A DNA stretch of 12,737 nucleotides, taken from IMG/VR virus record IMGVR_UViG_2526164663_000020. One strand, given 5' to 3'. This DNA is from a virus (Duplodnaviria; Heunggongvirae; Uroviricota; Caudoviricetes). Both the position numbers and the translations under genes were made by a program. Under the pieces are notes generated by a model. It was not told the origin of the DNA. It searched no databases and saw only the letters and a list, made by a program, of their open reading frames with translations. Shown here in pieces: positions 672 to 12,114 of the stretch (position 1 is its first letter; each line of letters opens with the position of its first letter).

Positions 672-1490
672 TTAAGCAGCCATCTGATGATATTTTTCCC
701 TGAAGGCTGCCGGGGAGATATTCCCCAGACGAGAGTGACGACGCTGACGATTGTAGAAAATCTCAATGTATTCCCGTATTACTGAGATGGCTTCATCCCG
801 GTTATTAAAACGATAGTGGCTCAGGCTCTCATTTTTCAGCGTTCCCCAGAAGCTTTCCATCGGAGCGTTGTCGTAACAGTTACCTTTACGCGACATTGAT
901 GTTTTCAGACCAAACTGCTCCTGTATGACCCGGTAATCGTATGCGCAGTACTGTGAACCTCGATCAGAGTGGTGGATTAGCCCGGCAGGTGGGCGCTGGC
1001 TCCTGAGCGCCATAAACAGAGCTTTACCTGTCAGCTCTTTTGTCATGCGCTCTCCCATGGCGTAGCCGACAATTTCGCACGTATAAACATCTTTGATGCC
1101 AGCGAGGTACAACCATCCCTCCTGTGTGGCAACATACGTCAGGTCCGCCACCCAGACCTGATTTGGTGCTGTAGGAGCGAACGTCTGGTTCAGCAGATTT
1201 GGCGCAACTGGCAGATTGTGGTTCGAGTTCGTAGTCGCTCTGAACTTGCGTTTCTGCTTACAGCGTAGCCTTAGCTCCTTACGAAGACGTGCCAGTCGGT
1301 CACGACCAACGATGATGCCATTCTCTGCCAGCTCCGTCTGGAGCCGCCGGGTTCCATATGTTTCGCGAGTGCGGATATGTGCCACCTTAATCTCCAGTTT
1401 TAGCCGCTCATCACTTTGTTTTCTGTCTGAGGGTTCATGCTGTACCCAGTTGTAATAACCGCTCCTGGATACACCAAATACCTGACACAT
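672..1490 (-). CDS. IS600 orfB, the DDE transposase catalytic portion; probably expressed as an OrfAB fusion by -1 frameshifting rather than from the Met at 1490
   Basis: 272-aa ORF with the IS3-family integrase core (…HSDRGSQYCAYDY…, …SMSRKGNCYDNAPMESFWGTLKNE…). It lies in the -1 frame relative to orfA. An A7 run then G (plus-strand T-run 1571..1577) near the end of orfA gives a slippery A-AAA-AAA-G site. Confidence 0.85.
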   Translation of the reverse strand: MCQVFGVSRSGYYNWVQHEPSDRKQSDERLKLEIKVAHIRTRETYGTRRLQTELAENGIIVGRDRLARLRKELRLRCKQKRKFRATTNSNHNLPVAPNLLNQTFAPTAPNQVWVADLTYVATQEGWLYLAGIKDVYTCEIVGYAMGERMTKELTGKALFMALRSQRPPAGLIHHSDRGSQYCAYDYRVIQEQFGLKTSMSRKGNCYDNAPMESFWGTLKNESLSHYRFNNRDEAISVIREYIEIFYNRQRRHSRLGNISPAAFREKYHQMAA

Positions 1491-1525
1491 CGCTTCAATG
1501 GGAAATTGTTGTCGCCATTGTTCGA

Positions 1526-1828
1526 TTAACGCGTATTTTTCAGCGACTCCTGTGCAAAATACGCTGTTGCTTTTTTTAATATATCTCGCTCAAGGCGAGC
1601 TTCATTTAACGCCTTACGCAGTTGCAGAATTTCAGATTCCAGTTCAGCCACCGTGCGGGAACCAGGAGTACCGAGCCCTTTTCTGGCGGCGGTAACCCAT
1701 TGTCCTAAAGTGCCTTCAGGAAGAGATAATCGGGAAGCGCCTTCACTGATCGAAAGTTGATTTTCAAGAACCGTTCTGACAGCTTCGGCTTTGAACTCTT
1801 TAGAGTAACGTTGGGTTTTTCTGCTCAT
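1526..1828 (-). CDS. IS600 orfA, the HTH DNA-binding component of the transposase
   Basis: 100-aa ORF MSRKTQRYSKEFKAEAVRTV…LERDILKKATAYFAQESLKNTR, with the HTH and leucine-zipper layout typical of IS3-family OrfA. Confidence 0.85.
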   Translation of the reverse strand: MSRKTQRYSKEFKAEAVRTVLENQLSISEGASRLSLPEGTLGQWVTAARKGLGTPGSRTVAELESEILQLRKALNEARLERDILKKATAYFAQESLKNTR

Positions 1829-4541: not shown

Positions 4542-4838
4542 TCAGTTATTACTGATAGCGCCATAGCGTGAGCGGTAATTACGCAGGCGCGGGTCGATAT
4601 ATTCAGGGAATTTGTCTATTGTCGCTTTTCGCAACGGTCTCATTGCTGTTTCGTTTGTTCGGTCCTTCTCCTGTTTTAGCGCGAGTTGTATATCGCGTCG
4701 GTACATCCGTTCTGCTTTTGTTTCTGGTGTCAGAGCAAGAAACGCGTCGAAATTGTTTTTGATATTTCCCAGCACCTCCGCCTTGGAGCTACCGGAGCAG
4801 TTGCGCGGGTCATCCGCACCATACAGAGGCGCTGGCAT
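4542..4838 (-). CDS. Hypothetical protein (98 aa)
   Basis: Minus-strand ORF immediately downstream of the SSB-like gene, 23-nt gap. Confidence 0.55.
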
Positions 4839-4861
4839 AATGGGAGCCTTATTTTCAGTAA

Positions 4862-5449
4862 TCAGAAAGGAGGGTAATCGTTCTGGCTGTAACCATAATC
4901 ATCTGCATGATTATGGCTTACGTTTTTAGAGCGATTGTCTTTATCTTTGAGGCTGGCAACCATGTTGGCGATAGTTTCTGGTTGCTTGCCTTCTGCCTTT
5001 TCTTTAAGGGTTTGACCTGTTTGTGCAATAAACGGGATGCGTATTTCCATCTGGTAGCTGTCTGCGCCAGTCTTTTTGTTTGTGGTTAATACTTTCTGGA
5101 GCACTAACCCGATTTTCTTTCCATGAAATTCAGGTGCAACAAATTTACTGGCGGAAACCATATGTTGCGTTAATTGTCCAATCCCGGCACACCCCATCAT
5201 GGCGTGAACGACATTTGCGCCAAATTTGTTTTCCGTGCCGTCATTTTTCTGAACACAGACGCTAAGATACTGGATTTTACGTCCGTCGTCGGATTCTCCA
5301 GAAAACTCAATAAATTTGGCTCCTTTTTCTGATTGCTTGAGTTCTGCTTCAGTAATGGTAATTATGTAAGCGCCAGTTTCGTTAATAAAACCACCTTGCC
5401 CTGCGGTCAGTGCTGCTTCTTCGTTATAAGTAAAAATTACGTTGCTCAT
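4862..5449 (-). CDS. Sak4-associated single-strand-DNA-binding-like protein (putative; DUF669-like is my recollection)
   Basis: 195-aa ORF whose ATG overlaps the Sak4 stop by 4 bp (5446..5449). The position immediately downstream of a Sak4-type ATPase is typical of the cognate SSB partner. No canonical SSB motif recognised by eye. Confidence 0.55.
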   Translation of the reverse strand: MSNVIFTYNEEAALTAGQGGFINETGAYIITITEAELKQSEKGAKFIEFSGESDDGRKIQYLSVCVQKNDGTENKFGANVVHAMMGCAGIGQLTQHMVSASKFVAPEFHGKKIGLVLQKVLTTNKKTGADSYQMEIRIPFIAQTGQTLKEKAEGKQPETIANMVASLKDKDNRSKNVSHNHADDYGYSQNDYPPF

Positions 5450-6126
5450 GCGGCGTTTTCCTTAATTTGATGAACATTATTGATGCCGTAGTAATCACAA
5501 ACAGTGGCATCGACGAAAGAGAGATCGTTATCAATCTCATTGGAATCAAACATTCCCATTGGGGATTTAACAGTGTCTGCACCGTTGTTTTTCGTGGTGA
5601 AAAAGAACTGGTCATCGCGGGTAAGAGTGCGAAGAACTATAGTAAACATGCCTTCGACAGTGATTTTCTCGTCCAGCATTTTGCCGATAGTCTTCATTTT
5701 CACGCGCCCCATAGGGGTTTCTTCGGTGTGCGCAAGAAAATAGACTCTCAGGTCATCAGGCGCATCCTGTGCAGCCTTAATGACCTCCCATGCGTGGCGG
5801 CCTATCTCAGTAAATTTATCAAACGATTTTTCTTCTGAGCGGCGCATAAACTCATTGCTCATCACATACTGGAAGTCATCAACAATAACGATTCTTTTTC
5901 CGTATTCGTGAGCACGCTTAATTACAGCAACTATTACGTCCCATTTGTCAGTGGTAACTACGGTTCCTTTTTTTGCTCTGGCATCCCATGCAAGCCAGTT
6001 TTTTGATTTAAATGGTAGCGGCTTGCCTATTGGTTTTATAAGTATTGCTTCCTCTGGATTGATATTTCTCATGCTGGTTGATTTTCCGGTGCCAGACTCA
6101 CCGAGTATTAATATCGCAGTTCCCAT
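5446..6126 (-). CDS. Sak4-like core-only RecA-family recombination ATPase
   Basis: 226-aa ORF with an N-terminal Walker A (ILILGESGTGKST) and a Walker B-like hydrophobic stretch ending in DD (RIVIVDDFQ). Size and position between kil/cIII and the ea genes are those of a lambdoid recombination module. Confidence 0.7.
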   Translation of the reverse strand: MGTAILILGESGTGKSTSMRNINPEEAILIKPIGKPLPFKSKNWLAWDARAKKGTVVTTDKWDVIVAVIKRAHEYGKRIVIVDDFQYVMSNEFMRRSEEKSFDKFTEIGRHAWEVIKAAQDAPDDLRVYFLAHTEETPMGRVKMKTIGKMLDEKITVEGMFTIVLRTLTRDDQFFFTTKNNGADTVKSPMGMFDSNEIDNDLSFVDATVCDYYGINNVHQIKENAA

Positions 6127-6433: not shown

Positions 6434-6566
6434 TTTTGGGAACTCCTGGCTGATTAAGTACGTCGATGAGTCGCTTCCATCCGTCACGTAATTTACGGGT
6501 GATTCGTTCAAGTAAAGATTCGGAAGGGCAGCCAGCAACAGGCCACCCTGCAATGGCATATTGCAT
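6426..6566 (-). CDS. cIII: CIII (FtsH/HflB inhibitor that stabilises CII)
   Basis: MQYAIAGWPVAGCPSESLLERITRKLRDGWKRLIDVLNQPGVPKNG is near-identical to the lambda CIII N-terminal 46 residues. AGGAG lies 7 nt upstream of the ATG at 6564..6566. It is 46 aa here against 54 aa in lambda as I recall it. Confidence 0.9.
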   Translation of the reverse strand: MQYAIAGWPVAGCPSESLLERITRKLRDGWKRLIDVLNQPGVPKNG

Positions 6567-6586
6567 GGTGTGCTCCTTATTTATAC

Positions 6587-6655
6587 ATAACGAAAAACGC
6601 CTCGAGTGAAGCGTTATTGGTATGCATATAAAAAGGCCCTCACGCACTGGAGGGC
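6587..6655 (-). terminator. Tandem intrinsic terminators on the minus strand (tL-like) between the orphan gene and cIII
   Basis: Minus-strand RNA: GCCCUC-cagugcgu-GAGGGC followed by CUUUUUAUA (stem 6636..6641 with 6650..6655, U-run 6626..6635). Then a weaker AACGC-N10-GCGUU followed by UUUCGUU (6596..6615, U-rich 6587..6595). Confidence 0.6.
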
Positions 6656-6759
6656 AAAGAAGATTTCCAATAATCAGAACAAGTCGGCTCCTGTTTAGTT
6701 ACGAGCGACATTGCTCCGTGTATTCACTCGTTGGAATGAATACACAGTGCTTATTCGTA

Positions 6760-7230
6760 CTAATAAAATACCCAATTTTCTGTTTCTTGGTTGTGTCCAA
6801 AGTTATATTCAATATCTGGTGTTGATGTATCAATATTTTTCATCCCATCAACAAGAGTTGATACAACAGCCAAATCTTGTTTTATTCTCATTAAATGGTA
6901 TTTCTTCCGGCGCAATAAACTTTCAATAGCAAGTTTCTTCGTTGGGAATGCAAAAGATCTTTCTGCATTTTTTGCTACTTTCTTAATTGCATATCTATTT
7001 CTCCTTTGTTTCCATTCCTGTAACCACTGATTTGGTGCTGGTTTAAAATTAACAATCCAATGCGCAGGAACCAACCATGCATAATGCTCTGTCTGATGAA
7101 AAGCTATATATTGAAGTGCGAATATTTTTATCCCATCTTCTTCAACTGTCGCCTGGAATCTCCAGAAAACAGGCATTCCATCATGTTCAGTTTCTGATTC
7201 AGGAAAAGGTACGCTCCATGATTTTGTCAT
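6760..7230 (-). CDS. Orphan hypothetical protein (156 aa) in an AT-rich island immediately downstream of N
   Basis: Minus-strand ORF with GAGGTG at a good spacing before the ATG at 7228..7230. Visibly more AT-rich than its flanks. No family recognised. Confidence 0.6.
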   Translation of the reverse strand: MTKSWSVPFPESETEHDGMPVFWRFQATVEEDGIKIFALQYIAFHQTEHYAWLVPAHWIVNFKPAPNQWLQEWKQRRNRYAIKKVAKNAERSFAFPTKKLAIESLLRRKKYHLMRIKQDLAVVSTLVDGMKNIDTSTPDIEYNFGHNQETENWVFY

Positions 7231-7288
7231 ATCTCACCTCAAATAAGTGGTTTGCTGCCTAATTTCATTTTCTGGCGACCAACACAAG

Positions 7289-7672
7289 TCACCTCGCCGT
7301 CAGTTGTTTTGATTTCCGGTAGCCTGCCGCGTAAATGGCTACGTTTGGAAGACATACACCAGTTTCTGGTTGCTTATGTCCAAACTCATTCGCGTACACA
7401 ATGGCCGCTCGCTCCAGATTGCGTCTGTATTCTTTCTGTTGCCAGATCACGTCCTGTGCCATGAACTTAATTGGCTTAGCGTCTTCTATGCGCTCAGGCG
7501 TTTCGTGAGTACCTTTAGCCTGAATCTGCGCTCTGCTTAGAGTAGGGCGGTGTAATACTTCTGAACTTATTGCTTCTTCGCGGGCCAGTACGCCGTTAGC
7601 TAATGCCTTTGCCTTTAAACGCTCACGACGACGAGAACGTGAATTGCCTTTGAACTGAGTTCTGCGTGTCAT
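7289..7672 (-). CDS. N: N-type transcription antiterminator, P22 gp24-like
   Basis: 127 aa with an N-terminal arginine-rich motif (GNSRSRRRERLKAKALA) and a C-terminus …LPNVAIYAAGYRKSKQLTAR matching my recollection of P22 gp24 (…LPGVALYAAGHRKSKQITAR). GGAGG lies before the ATG at 7670..7672. Confidence 0.8.
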   Translation of the reverse strand: MTRRTQFKGNSRSRRRERLKAKALANGVLAREEAISSEVLHRPTLSRAQIQAKGTHETPERIEDAKPIKFMAQDVIWQQKEYRRNLERAAIVYANEFGHKQPETGVCLPNVAIYAAGYRKSKQLTAR

Positions 7673-7859: not shown

Positions 7860-8140
7860 TCATATTCGAATCGTTGTATATTCACCGCCCTGGTGAGTAA
7901 TGCGTCCTGCTGATGGGTGAACTTTATCGGAGTGATAAATTAATGGCAATAGCAAAATGATAAATTCTCTTGGTTTTCAAATATCGTATTGATTCTTATG
8001 GTGTTTTATTTTGTTGTAGGAATTCGACAGGATAAATAAAGAGATTTGAGGGAGATCTGGATTGCGTTGTTTAGCAAGTTGTATCTATTTATTTTTCAAC
8101 AAATACAATTGGTTATGTGTTTTTAGGTGTGGGGATCGTG
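7860..8140 (-). promoter_or_regulatory. Putative PL promoter and OL operator region
   Basis: AT-rich non-coding stretch between the tImm-like terminator and nutL. Contains the motif (T/G)GATAAAT at 7933..7940, 7958..7965 and 8030..8037 and a palindrome TTTATC-N5-GATAAA at 7924..7940; the same motif family recurs between cI and cro. The -35 and -10 elements were not pinned down. Confidence 0.4.
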
Positions 8141-8171
8141 AGGCAAAGAAAACCCGGCGCTGAGGCCGGGT
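8141..8171 (-). terminator. Intrinsic terminator on the minus strand (tImm-like) ending the cI/TAC transcript before PL
   Basis: Minus-strand RNA: ACCCGGC-cucagc-GCCGGGU followed by UUUCUUUG (stem 8152..8158 with 8165..8171), 8 nt after the stop at 8180. Confidence 0.7.
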
Positions 8172-8179
8172 GGGGAATT

Positions 8180-8584
8180 TCACTTATTACTGTTCGTTTC
8201 CATGGGATTGGCCAAGAAATCAAAATAAGGCAGAGTGAACCTACCAAGGTTTGACATGAGGATAATTTGCTCGGCATATGTTTTTATATAGGGATATGCC
8301 ATATTGGGAGCAATGGACCTTACCTCATATGATTTTGCCATTTCATGAGAAAAATCATCTTCTGACCGGAAGTCAAAGTCGTATGTGATGTCCATCTCAA
8401 GCCTGCCTTCAATAGTTACGGAGGCAAAATATCTCACTCTAAATAGCTTTGAATCCTTCACATTAGTGTAAAGTTCATTATTTAGATTAACGGTTGTTTT
8501 TATGGCTTTTTTTGCTGTTGAATCGCCTTCTAGCCGTGTCATAACCAAGCGTTCAACTTTTTTGCTAATGAGTTCAATTTTCAT
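8180..8584 (-). CDS. SecB-like chaperone, putative third component of a toxin-antitoxin-chaperone module
   Basis: 134 aa. The segments FRVRYFASV and APNMAYPYIKTYAEQIILMSNLGRFTLPYFDF parallel E. coli SecB LRVTVTAS and [33 protein letters not shown] as I recall them. Weak RBS. Lies 82 nt downstream of the antitoxin gene on the same strand. Confidence 0.6.
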   Translation of the reverse strand: MKIELISKKVERLVMTRLEGDSTAKKAIKTTVNLNNELYTNVKDSKLFRVRYFASVTIEGRLEMDITYDFDFRSEDDFSHEMAKSYEVRSIAPNMAYPYIKTYAEQIILMSNLGRFTLPYFDFLANPMETNSNK

Positions 8585-8666
8585 GGTAATAATAAGTAAT
8601 TTCCGTCAGAAGTCATTTCGTCATTCAGGTTGCTAGCCGCTGTGAAACTTGATGACAAGTTACTTA

Positions 8667-9236
8667 TCAAAGAAAAACATTCCGTTTTTCTTTGCATTTG
8701 CCATTACCCCTTACTGCGCTGAACAACATTTTTGAAAAGTAAGATTCTGTAGCCTTTTCAGCGAAATAAGCAGAAGGTGATGTGACGGCTGACTCACACC
8801 GAGCAATGACGCTAGTCATGGCTGTTTCTTCTTCCTCTGCGTCAACTAGGCTCCATTCAATTGCGCTCATATCTTGAATTAAGATATCTGCAGGAATTCC
8901 AAGTCCGTCATGTAGTCTACGGATCATTGAAAGACTTAATGGACGCTTACGATTTAAGACCTCAGATACTTTAGATGCTGAGCCAATGTATTGTTTCATA
9001 TCGGCATAAGAGAGGCCTTGTTGATCCATACGGAACTTGATTGCTTCTATGGGATCTGGCTTGTCCATAGGGAACTCGCGTGACTCATAGTGCTCGATAA
9101 GCAAGCCTAGTAGTTCAAACTCATCAAAATCTTCAGTTCCAGGTTGTAAATCACTAGACGCAAGTTCAATGAGCCTTTCCATAGCTGCAGCATGCTCTTC
9201 ACTATTTTTAATGATGCGCCAGCTAGTTCGATTCAT
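8667..9236 (-). CDS. HigA-like HTH antitoxin with a C-terminal extension of about 70 aa
   Basis: 189 aa. The start overlaps the toxin stop by 4 bp (ATGA). The central segment …MKQYIGSASKVSEVLNRKRPLSLSMIRRLHDGLGIPADILIQ resembles the HTH region of E. coli HigA as I recall it. The tail (…SPSAYFAEKATESYFSKMLFSAVRGNGKCKEKRNVFL) is absent from canonical HigA. Confidence 0.65.
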   Translation of the reverse strand: MNRTSWRIIKNSEEHAAAMERLIELASSDLQPGTEDFDEFELLGLLIEHYESREFPMDKPDPIEAIKFRMDQQGLSYADMKQYIGSASKVSEVLNRKRPLSLSMIRRLHDGLGIPADILIQDMSAIEWSLVDAEEEETAMTSVIARCESAVTSPSAYFAEKATESYFSKMLFSAVRGNGKCKEKRNVFL

Positions 9237-9520
9237 TTAAGCCTCCACTTGTCGTACTCTGCATGAGTTCCAACTCTTTCAACTATGACCATTCCTGCCT
9301 GGTAAACAACTTGGACAACGAGCCGATAGTTATTGCCTTTTATATTAAAAATTACCCTGTTGTTAGGAAGGAAGTCGGCAGAATTAAATCTATTCCGTAT
9401 GTCTTGAGTCGTTTTCCAGTTTTCTCTTATCACTTCATCATACCAAGAGTCTAAAGCCCCCTTGGCCTGATTGTGCTTCCGGCTAAAACTGTGAAGCTTC
9501 TCTACGTTTAAGACCTTCAT
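9233..9520 (-). CDS. HigB-like (YgjN-type) RelE-fold mRNA interferase toxin
   Basis: 95 aa. The C-terminal half …NNRVIFNIKGNNYRLVVQVVYQAGMVIVERVGTHAEYDKW resembles E. coli HigB as I recall it. The toxin gene precedes the antitoxin, as in higBA operons. Confidence 0.7.
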   Translation of the reverse strand: MKVLNVEKLHSFSRKHNQAKGALDSWYDEVIRENWKTTQDIRNRFNSADFLPNNRVIFNIKGNNYRLVVQVVYQAGMVIVERVGTHAEYDKWRLK

Positions 9521-11175: not shown

Positions 11176-12114
11176 ATGACAAATACAGCAAAAATACTCA
11201 ACTTCGGCAGAGGTAACTTTGCCGAACAGGAGCGTAATGTGGCAGATCTCGATGATGGTTACGCCAGACTATCAAATATGCTGATTGAGGCTTATTCAGG
11301 CGCAGATCTGACCAAGCGACAGTTTAAAGTGCTGCTTGCCATTCTGCGTAAAACCTATGGGTGGAATAAACCAATGGACAGAATCACCGATTCTCAACTT
11401 AGCGAGATTACAAAGTTACCTGTCAAACGGTGCAATGAAGCCAAGTTAGAACTCGTCAGAATGAATATTATCAAGCAGCAAGGCGGCATGTTTGGACCAA
11501 ATAAAAACATCTCAGAATGGTGCATCCCTCAAAACGAGGGAGGTTCCCCTAAAATGAGGGACATCCCTCAAAACGAGGGAAAATCCCCTAAAACGAGGGA
11601 TAAAACATCCCTCAAATTAGGGGATTGCTATCCCTCAAAACAGGGGGACACAAAAGACACTATTACAAAAGAAAAAAGAAAAGATTATTCGTCCGAGAAT
11701 TCTGGCGAATCCTCTGACCAGCCAGAAAACGATCTTTCTGTGGTTAAACCGGATGCTGCAATTCAGAGCGGCAGCAAGTGGGGAACAGCAGAAGACCTGA
11801 CCGCCGCAGAGTGGATGTTTGACATGGTGAAGACCATCGCACCATCAGCCAGAAAACCGAATTTTGCAGGGTGGGCTAACGATATCCGCCTGATGCGTGA
11901 ACGTGACGGACGTAACCACCGCGACATGTGCGTGCTGTTCCGCTGGGCATGCCAGGACAACTTCTGGTCCGGTAACGTGCTAAGTCCGGCCAAACTCCGC
12001 GACAAGTGGACCCAACTCGAAATCAACCGTAACAAGCAACAGGCTGGCGTGACAGCTGGAAAACCAAAACTCGACCTGACAAACACTGACTGGATTTACG
12101 GGGTGGATTTATGA
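11176..12114 (+). CDS. O: Replication initiator O (lambda type), 312 aa
   Basis: Near-identical over most of its length to lambda O as I recall it (MTNTAKILNFGRGNFA…TDWIYGVDL), with a 13-aa insertion (GSPKMRDIPQNEG) in the iteron-encoded segment. Confidence 0.95.
   Translation: MTNTAKILNFGRGNFAEQERNVADLDDGYARLSNMLIEAYSGADLTKRQFKVLLAILRKTYGWNKPMDRITDSQLSEITKLPVKRCNEAKLELVRMNIIKQQGGMFGPNKNISEWCIPQNEGGSPKMRDIPQNEGKSPKTRDKTSLKLGDCYPSKQGDTKDTITKEKRKDYSSENSGESSDQPENDLSVVKPDAAIQSGSKWGTAEDLTAAEWMFDMVKTIAPSARKPNFAGWANDIRLMRERDGRNHRDMCVLFRWACQDNFWSGNVLSPAKLRDKWTQLEINRNKQQAGVTAGKPKLDLTNTDWIYGVDL
11524..11690. repeat. Replication origin inside O: six 18-19-bp iterons plus an AT-rich region
   Basis: Iterons of the form ATCCCTCAAAACGAGGGA at about 11524, 11544, 11563, 11583, 11607 and 11630, followed by AT-rich cacaaaagacactattacaaaagaaaaaagaaaagattatt (11649..11690). 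Confidence 0.85.

Follow-up and report, generated by a model that had tools for sequence, protein, structure and literature searches.

The window examined here, a 12,737-nucleotide stretch of DNA from the IMG/VR virus record IMGVR_UViG_2526164663_000020 (Caudoviricetes), is a Shiga toxin 1a (Stx1a) prophage of the Escherichia coli O26:H11 type. Several records named 'Stx1a-converting phage' match it at 100% identity, and chromosomes such as that of O26:H11 strain 11368 at 99.9%. Between its antiterminator gene N and a pair of intrinsic terminators lies an open reading frame of 156 codons, ORF156, which is a long-annotated accessory cassette and no discovery of a new kind of element. The reading of its role that we favour, at a probability of roughly 45%, is that the protein acts in lytic growth, blunting host defence or redirecting host function. 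The gene and its ribosome-binding site are placed as follows.

6760-7230, minus strand: coding sequence of ORF156, HK97 gp45 / 933W L0079 family, phrog_1636; 156 amino acids, ATG start, stop codon TAG at 6762-6760.
7234-7240, minus strand: 7-nt Shine-Dalgarno sequence GAGGTGA, spaced 3 nt from the ATG at 7230-7228, within the conserved right flank of the cassette.

The original prediction, made from the letters of the window alone, had described a real gene with a good ribosome-binding site, and both the start signals and the pattern of substitution bear this out. Pairwise dN/dS (the ratio of nonsynonymous to synonymous divergence) lies between 0.05 and 0.19 wherever dS can be estimated, and synonymous sites are saturated, yet 60-85% of residues are retained. 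Judged from these alignments, ORF156 shows itself to be a genuine protein gene under selection. The accompanying description of the gene as an orphan has to be given up. The protein is 98.7-100% identical to HK97 gp45 and 933W L0079 (100% for the latter) and, within the same range, to unnamed open reading frames of H-19B, BP-4795, Min27, phage 86 and many Stx phages; its RefSeq entry is WP_000167595.1, 'hypothetical protein'. It matches the phrog_1636 profile over residues 1-156 of 156 (E 2.7e-112), a family of unassigned function. Of 5,426 complete E. coli genomes, 598 (11%) contain the DNA, at up to four copies per genome, and among the matches listed in these genomes the copies are labelled 'hypothetical protein'.

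Beyond E. coli, full-length relatives with 57-85% identity are found in prophages of the Enterobacterales (Pectobacterium, Brenneria, Rosenbergiella, Cronobacter), and the family extends to phages and prophages of Vibrio and Pseudomonas. A profile search of 1.84 billion representative sequences returned 81 proteins at E <= 1e-3, nearly all of them stand-alone proteins of 130-160 residues with about 20-27% identity. Two long matches (P0045, P0086) were considered as domain fusions and discarded as false positives, being low-complexity repeat proteins. All 73 members of the resulting alignment (A2) match phrog_1636 and most also match phrog_13631 or phrog_25384; these three families have no assigned function and no Pfam domain. 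Scans of the ORF156 protein against Pfam and NCBIfam gave no match, a Pfam scan of the 73 family members gave scattered chance matches only, and the PADLOC-DB 2.0 scan of ORF156 gave a single chance-level match (Cas1_II, E 0.018, 12 bits). The earlier statement that no family could be recognised thus remains accurate in the sense that no named family was matched in Pfam, NCBIfam or PADLOC.

The predicted structure is equally without a named counterpart. ORF156 encodes a protein of 18.6 kDa with an isoelectric point (pI) of 9.1 and 17 Lys/Arg residues between positions 61 and 120. It has no signal peptide, and no segment of it is hydrophobic (the highest Kyte-Doolittle mean over 19 residues is 0.56), in agreement with the expectation that it is not an obvious membrane protein. 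AlphaFold2 modelling from the 73-sequence alignment gave a predicted local distance difference test (pLDDT) score of 95.7 and replaced a model from close homologues alone, which had reached 60. The predicted fold is compact alpha/beta. It combines a sheet of three strands with short helices, a fourth strand and a helix of 33 residues, and in the high-confidence model the C-terminal tail is part of the compact fold as well. A comparison of this fold with the PDB found no matching solved structure, and PDB sequence searches with both profiles returned only coiled-coil-like noise (best E 1.1 and 0.26). The remote-homology search and structure prediction proposed as checks at the outset therefore point to no housekeeping or structural family and to a fold unlike solved structures.

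Residues conserved across the wider family are chiefly aromatic and basic (positions 23, 24, 41, 52, 76, 83 and 84, with further conserved positions at 87, 91/92, 98, 108 and 109), and the sole conserved acidic position of the wider family is Gln in the ORF156 clade. On account of these two features, ORF156 seems less likely to be an enzyme than a binding protein, whose partner would be nucleic acid, a nucleotide-like ligand or an acidic protein of the host.

ORF156 occupies a slot whose contents are exchanged between closely related phages. HK106 shares its N allele and its terminators with the window and carries a different gene, for an 83-residue protein (phrog_2471), between them. Because homology to HK106 ends at 6750 and restarts at 7228, the exchanged segment corresponds to the coding sequence minus its ATG.

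6751-7227, minus strand: exchanged cassette, the segment differing from HK106 (blastn breakpoints 6750 and 7228; HK106 annotation).

The flanks held in common comprise the Shine-Dalgarno sequence and ATG on one side and a 14-bp hairpin with the terminators on the other. Over 6626-6750 the left flank shares 96% identity with lambda 33923-34045, which lies between ea10 and ral, and the N-to-terminator region of lambda and PhiR57_1 holds ral, orf28 and sieB; the assignment of ORF156 to a ral/sieB-type slot was therefore correct for lambda-type phages. Further occupants are ECs_1180 in Sp5 and a 'TolA' protein that stands beside the open reading frame in a P22-like phage. As near-identical phages carry unrelated genes in this slot, ORF156 would be dispensable for the core phage cycle.

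The position of the gene is nonetheless stable across different versions of its upstream neighbour. Among 80 IMG/VR loci with a 100%-identical open reading frame, it is preceded by at least six different N or Nun alleles, which include the H-19B type, the NARNRRRARRQ type, lambda N, P22 gp24, the MSRKTEFKG type and a Nun-like gene downstream of a phage-21-type N. Extra cargo occasionally intervenes between N and the gene: a 62-residue CxxC protein, a 149-residue membrane protein, two further proteins of 74 and 89 residues, and a 207-residue Nmad5-domain protein. In 64 of 71 identical copies the gene is the last before the conserved hairpin. Two of the IMG/VR loci (L036 and L038) have the phage-21-type N and the Nun-like gene (phrog_5632) in tandem directly 5' of the open reading frame, and the slot of L038 additionally holds the 207-residue Nmad5-domain protein (PF18757, 5e-71). 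A second exchange point lies at 6625/6626, between the two terminators; this junction holds ea10/ssb in lambda, Sp5 and 933W but is empty in the window.

Base composition also sets the gene apart. ORF156 has a GC content of 35.2%, and of 25.5% at third codon positions (GC3); the GC content of the whole window is 45.5%, that of N 49.2% and that of cIII 47.5%. No other gene of the window is as rich in AT, and the mere 0.46% of 471-nt segments that reach its AT content overlap ORF156. The claim that the gene is more AT-rich than its flanks and was acquired horizontally is thus well founded in that its composition is foreign, a GC content unlike that of flanking phage genes being the compositional mark of a moron in the Hendrix/Juhala sense. 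The low GC3 is peculiar to this allele, since 73-83%-identical copies in other lambdoid prophages have a GC3 of 50-56%. The nearest relative beyond the E. coli prophage and HK97 copies (locus L025; 85% identity, dS 0.5, GC3 29%) is located in a non-lambdoid phage-like contig. This allele-specific AT-richness and the setting of the L025 copy together support horizontal acquisition of the E. coli allele.

The transcriptional setting of ORF156 is defined by five elements, of which the two terminators lie between it and cIII.

7921-7949, minus strand: pL-like promoter expected to drive N and ORF156; aligns with the HK106 promoter annotated 'similar to lambda PL'.
7289-7672, minus strand: antiterminator gene N, H-19B/933W/HK97 allele (Pfam N_peptide 2e-15); next gene upstream of ORF156, on the same transcript.
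6716-6747, minus strand: perfect 14-bp hairpin, 4-nt loop, lacking a U-tract, beginning 13 nt past the ORF156 stop, in the conserved left flank.
6627-6655, minus strand: first intrinsic terminator after pL, stem GCCCTC/GAGGGC (hairpin 6655-6636) and U-tract.
6588-6615, minus strand: second intrinsic terminator, directly 5' of cIII, hairpin 6615-6596 and U-tract.

This layout confirms that ORF156 stands alone between N and tandem terminators. The first terminator matches a putative terminator annotated in HK97 as well as the lambda segment between ea10 and ral. Because ORF156 lies upstream of the terminators, it is expected to be immediate-early and to need no N antitermination. The description of ORF156 as a moron holds for its foreign composition and fails for its transcription. 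No sigma-70-like site was found between N and ORF156, so that the gene, co-transcribed with N, lacks the promoter of its own that a moron would have, and the terminators sit in a flank conserved among phages with other cargo and are not its own either.

Expression, on which the original prediction depended, is documented for the 933W gene, which is 100% identical, in published RNA-seq data: its mRNA tracks N and rises sharply on prophage induction (PMC4048457). Antibiotics that raise Stx expression also induce the gene, and its basal level in uninduced lysogeny broth (LB), at 274 reads per kilobase per million (RPKM), is on a par with that of cI at 211 (PMC4048457).

Several features of the surrounding RNA stand beside these results. 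The 186-nt region 3' of ORF156 has a folding z of -4.6, and an Rfam scan of ORF156 and this 3' region detected only the thermoregulator (6521-6579) of cIII, the next gene after the terminators. The 14-bp hairpin is kept in the flank common to phages with other cargo and lies 3' of ral in lambda; its role could be to stabilise mRNA, to serve as a site for RNase III or other processing, or to mark a recombination boundary. In the lambda N, P22 gp24 and NARNRRRARRQ-type alleles (IMG/VR L031-L110), the N frame continues across the conserved flank and ends 8 nt short of the ATG of the open reading frame, as in L047 (1897-2202) and L101 (2293-2670). The TGA of those alleles overlaps the Shine-Dalgarno sequence, which suggests translational coupling of N and the open reading frame there; the N allele of the window ends 58 nt earlier.

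The neighbourhoods of more distant relatives are varied, and a comparison of neighbours across the loci found none that is constant. Copies with 71-83% identity (L026-L028) again lie directly behind an N-type gene after cI. The family gene heads an operon in Salmonella phage NX263 and in L025, where genes for ParB-like and MarR-like proteins follow it, while in a Vibrio phage it is second in an operon divergent from recE. Distant members sit within arrays of small early genes, often with orphan DNA methyltransferases (L006, L013, L014, L020, L021, L023) within a few kb. Lar-family genes occur at similar distances in L023 and L028, and RdgC-family genes lie near the family member in L020 and L023.

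Based on these observations, we consider that ORF156 would be made from the pL transcript together with N, using its own strong ribosome-binding site, as an immediate-early product from upstream of the terminators that could dispense with N antitermination. Its protein, presumably non-enzymatic, would act during lytic growth as a binder of an acidic host protein, of nucleic acid or of a nucleotide-type ligand, and its likeliest task would be to disable a host defence or to commandeer a host process. It might then be a functional analogue of Ral, by its slot, or of T7 Ocr, by its timing, and a homologue of neither. This role is favoured by an early placement that is conserved across many N alleles, by the slot held in common with Ral and the neighbourhoods with methyltransferases and Lar, by dispensability for the core cycle, and by the presence of relatives in phages that we take to be virulent. 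Several points weigh against it. Guilt by association is a weak argument here, because the defence gene sieB uses the slot too and methyltransferases are common in early-left regions. Many anti-restriction proteins are acidic DNA mimics and ORF156 is basic. Its N-independence is inferred from the positions of the terminators, the basal transcript level close to that of cI means that some expression in the lysogen may occur, and in Pectobacterium and Brenneria prophages the family gene is the last before xis/int and not beside N. A literature search by accession, locus tag and family name found no functional study of any family member, and the ORF156 sequence is absent from the supplements of both accessory-gene screens of Silas et al. 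The orf184 of that work, which belongs to the ral accessory region and triggers gop-beta-cII, was tried as a possible equivalent and rejected: its AlphaFold file begins MEALVVERSEDGYWT, a different protein. A more specific version, in which ORF156 would be the enterobacterial member of a phage-wide family forming a new anti-defence class of new fold, made immediate-early and sequestering nucleic acid or a nucleotide-type ligand through its aromatic-basic surface, seems to us rather unlikely.

The same conserved basic surface would suit a protein that serves the phage itself, as a nucleic-acid binder tuning early transcription, RNA stability, replication or recombination. The gene adjoins N and precedes the recombination module, and the ParB-like and MarR-like DNA-binding proteins in the operons of NX263 and L025, together with the nearby RdgC-family genes, would fit it. 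We nevertheless think this improbable, as unrelated genes freely substitute for ORF156 in near-identical phages (HK97 versus HK106), the gene turns up alongside six or more N/Nun alleles and alongside differing recombination modules, and no co-varying phage partner emerges. Doubtful to a greater degree is the reading as a SieB-type gene for exclusion or defence, expressed in the lysogen, a true moron that would benefit the lysogen by blocking other phages. SieB does occur in the same region of lambda, VT1-Sakai and PhiR57_1, the gene is AT-rich and cassette-like, and its transcript in uninduced LB approaches that of cI (PMC4048457). However, N gives an equal uninduced signal, which looks like pL leakage or spontaneous induction, and ORF156 has no promoter of its own that could be found, no PADLOC match and an hhalign probability against SieB of 0.6%. 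The idea, raised in the original prediction, of an exclusion function of this type is accordingly disfavoured: the protein is soluble, unlike membrane-type SieB, the gene is on the pL strand, and relatives reside in presumably virulent phages. Least probable of all, and very much so, is a moron through which Stx phages would promote host fitness or virulence, outside phage-phage or phage-host conflict. Its attraction is that the gene is common in Stx1 and Stx2 prophages and responds to antibiotics that raise Stx expression, but it is found equally in non-Stx HK97 and a P22-like phage and in phages or prophages of Pectobacterium, Brenneria, Vibrio and Pseudomonas. Its expression is governed by the early control of the phage, and its product has neither a signal peptide nor a membrane segment.

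Whichever role applies, ORF156 would be among the first products when Stx1, Stx2, HK97-like and P22-like prophages are induced, and about one in nine complete E. coli genomes carry it. Its strong conservation, its place in the Ral/SieB exchange slot and a confidently predicted fold with no solved counterpart make it a worthwhile experimental target. Should the proposed anti-defence or takeover role be true, a new protein family would be added to that catalogue, and it would help to account for differences in host range between near-identical lambdoid phages. Should no such phenotype appear, ORF156 stays an ordinary uncharacterised accessory gene.

Other parts of the window hold features of separate interest. 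Three genes after cI (8180-9520, minus strand, with a terminator at 8152-8171) form a candidate prophage-encoded defence module, at the position where lambda carries rexAB. The first encodes a HigB-like toxin (PADLOC PD-Lambda-2_A, 2.5e-42), the second a helix-turn-helix (HTH) protein that matches only the N-terminal third of PD-Lambda-2_B (2.8e-50), and the third a 134-residue protein resembling PD-T4-9_C (3e-11). In the window the HTH gene, perhaps through a frameshift, encodes 189 residues, compared with 218 in strain 00_3305 (L002). A role for ORF156 as neutraliser of the prophage's own HigB-like module was considered and rejected because HK97 and 933W pair the gene with different immunity-region cargo. 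A copy of IS600 (IS3 family; 672-1828, minus strand, with orfA at 1526-1828 and orfB at 672-1490) sits amid early-left accessory genes in the DUF551 region; it is missing from O26:H11 strain 11368 and lies at a different offset in strain 00_3305. The recombination module (4542-6126, minus strand) is of the Sak4 type, with an AAA_24 ATPase (phrog_2872), a 195-residue protein and an Abc2-like anti-RecBCD protein, and differs from the Exo/Bet/Gam of 933W and Sp5. Finally, GGGA/TCCC-rich repeats at 11524-11643 inside the O gene are probably origin iterons and gave spurious sub-threshold snoRNA matches in Rfam.

Set against known systems, HK97 gp45 and 933W L0079 are the same gene as ORF156, in the same position after N and between the same flanks, and their records are annotated 'hypothetical protein'. 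Lambda Ral resembles ORF156 in its location: it too is encoded in the accessory slot between N and cIII, is read from the same strand, has no promoter of its own and borders on the same conserved left flank. Ral is a protein of 66 residues compared with 156, and Ral/Lar proteins are unlike ORF156 in sequence and in family profile (hhalign probability 0.1-0.2%, no match to Pfam Lar_restr_allev). On the lambda map, ral is downstream of tL1, whereas ORF156 precedes the first terminator. SieB of lambda and P22 likewise comes from the region between N and cIII in lambda-type phages. It is a membrane-associated protein, whereas ORF156 has no hydrophobic segment; in the records examined sieB is annotated on the strand opposite N, which implies a separate transcript, whereas ORF156 is on the pL strand. 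T7 Ocr (gene 0.3) is comparable in expression logic only, being among the first products and non-essential. Ocr is a highly acidic DNA mimic of known structure, unlike the basic ORF156 and its fold without a PDB match. The acidic DNA mimics Ocr, ArdA and Arn are recognised by a strongly acidic surface and a known mimic fold, and ORF156 has neither.
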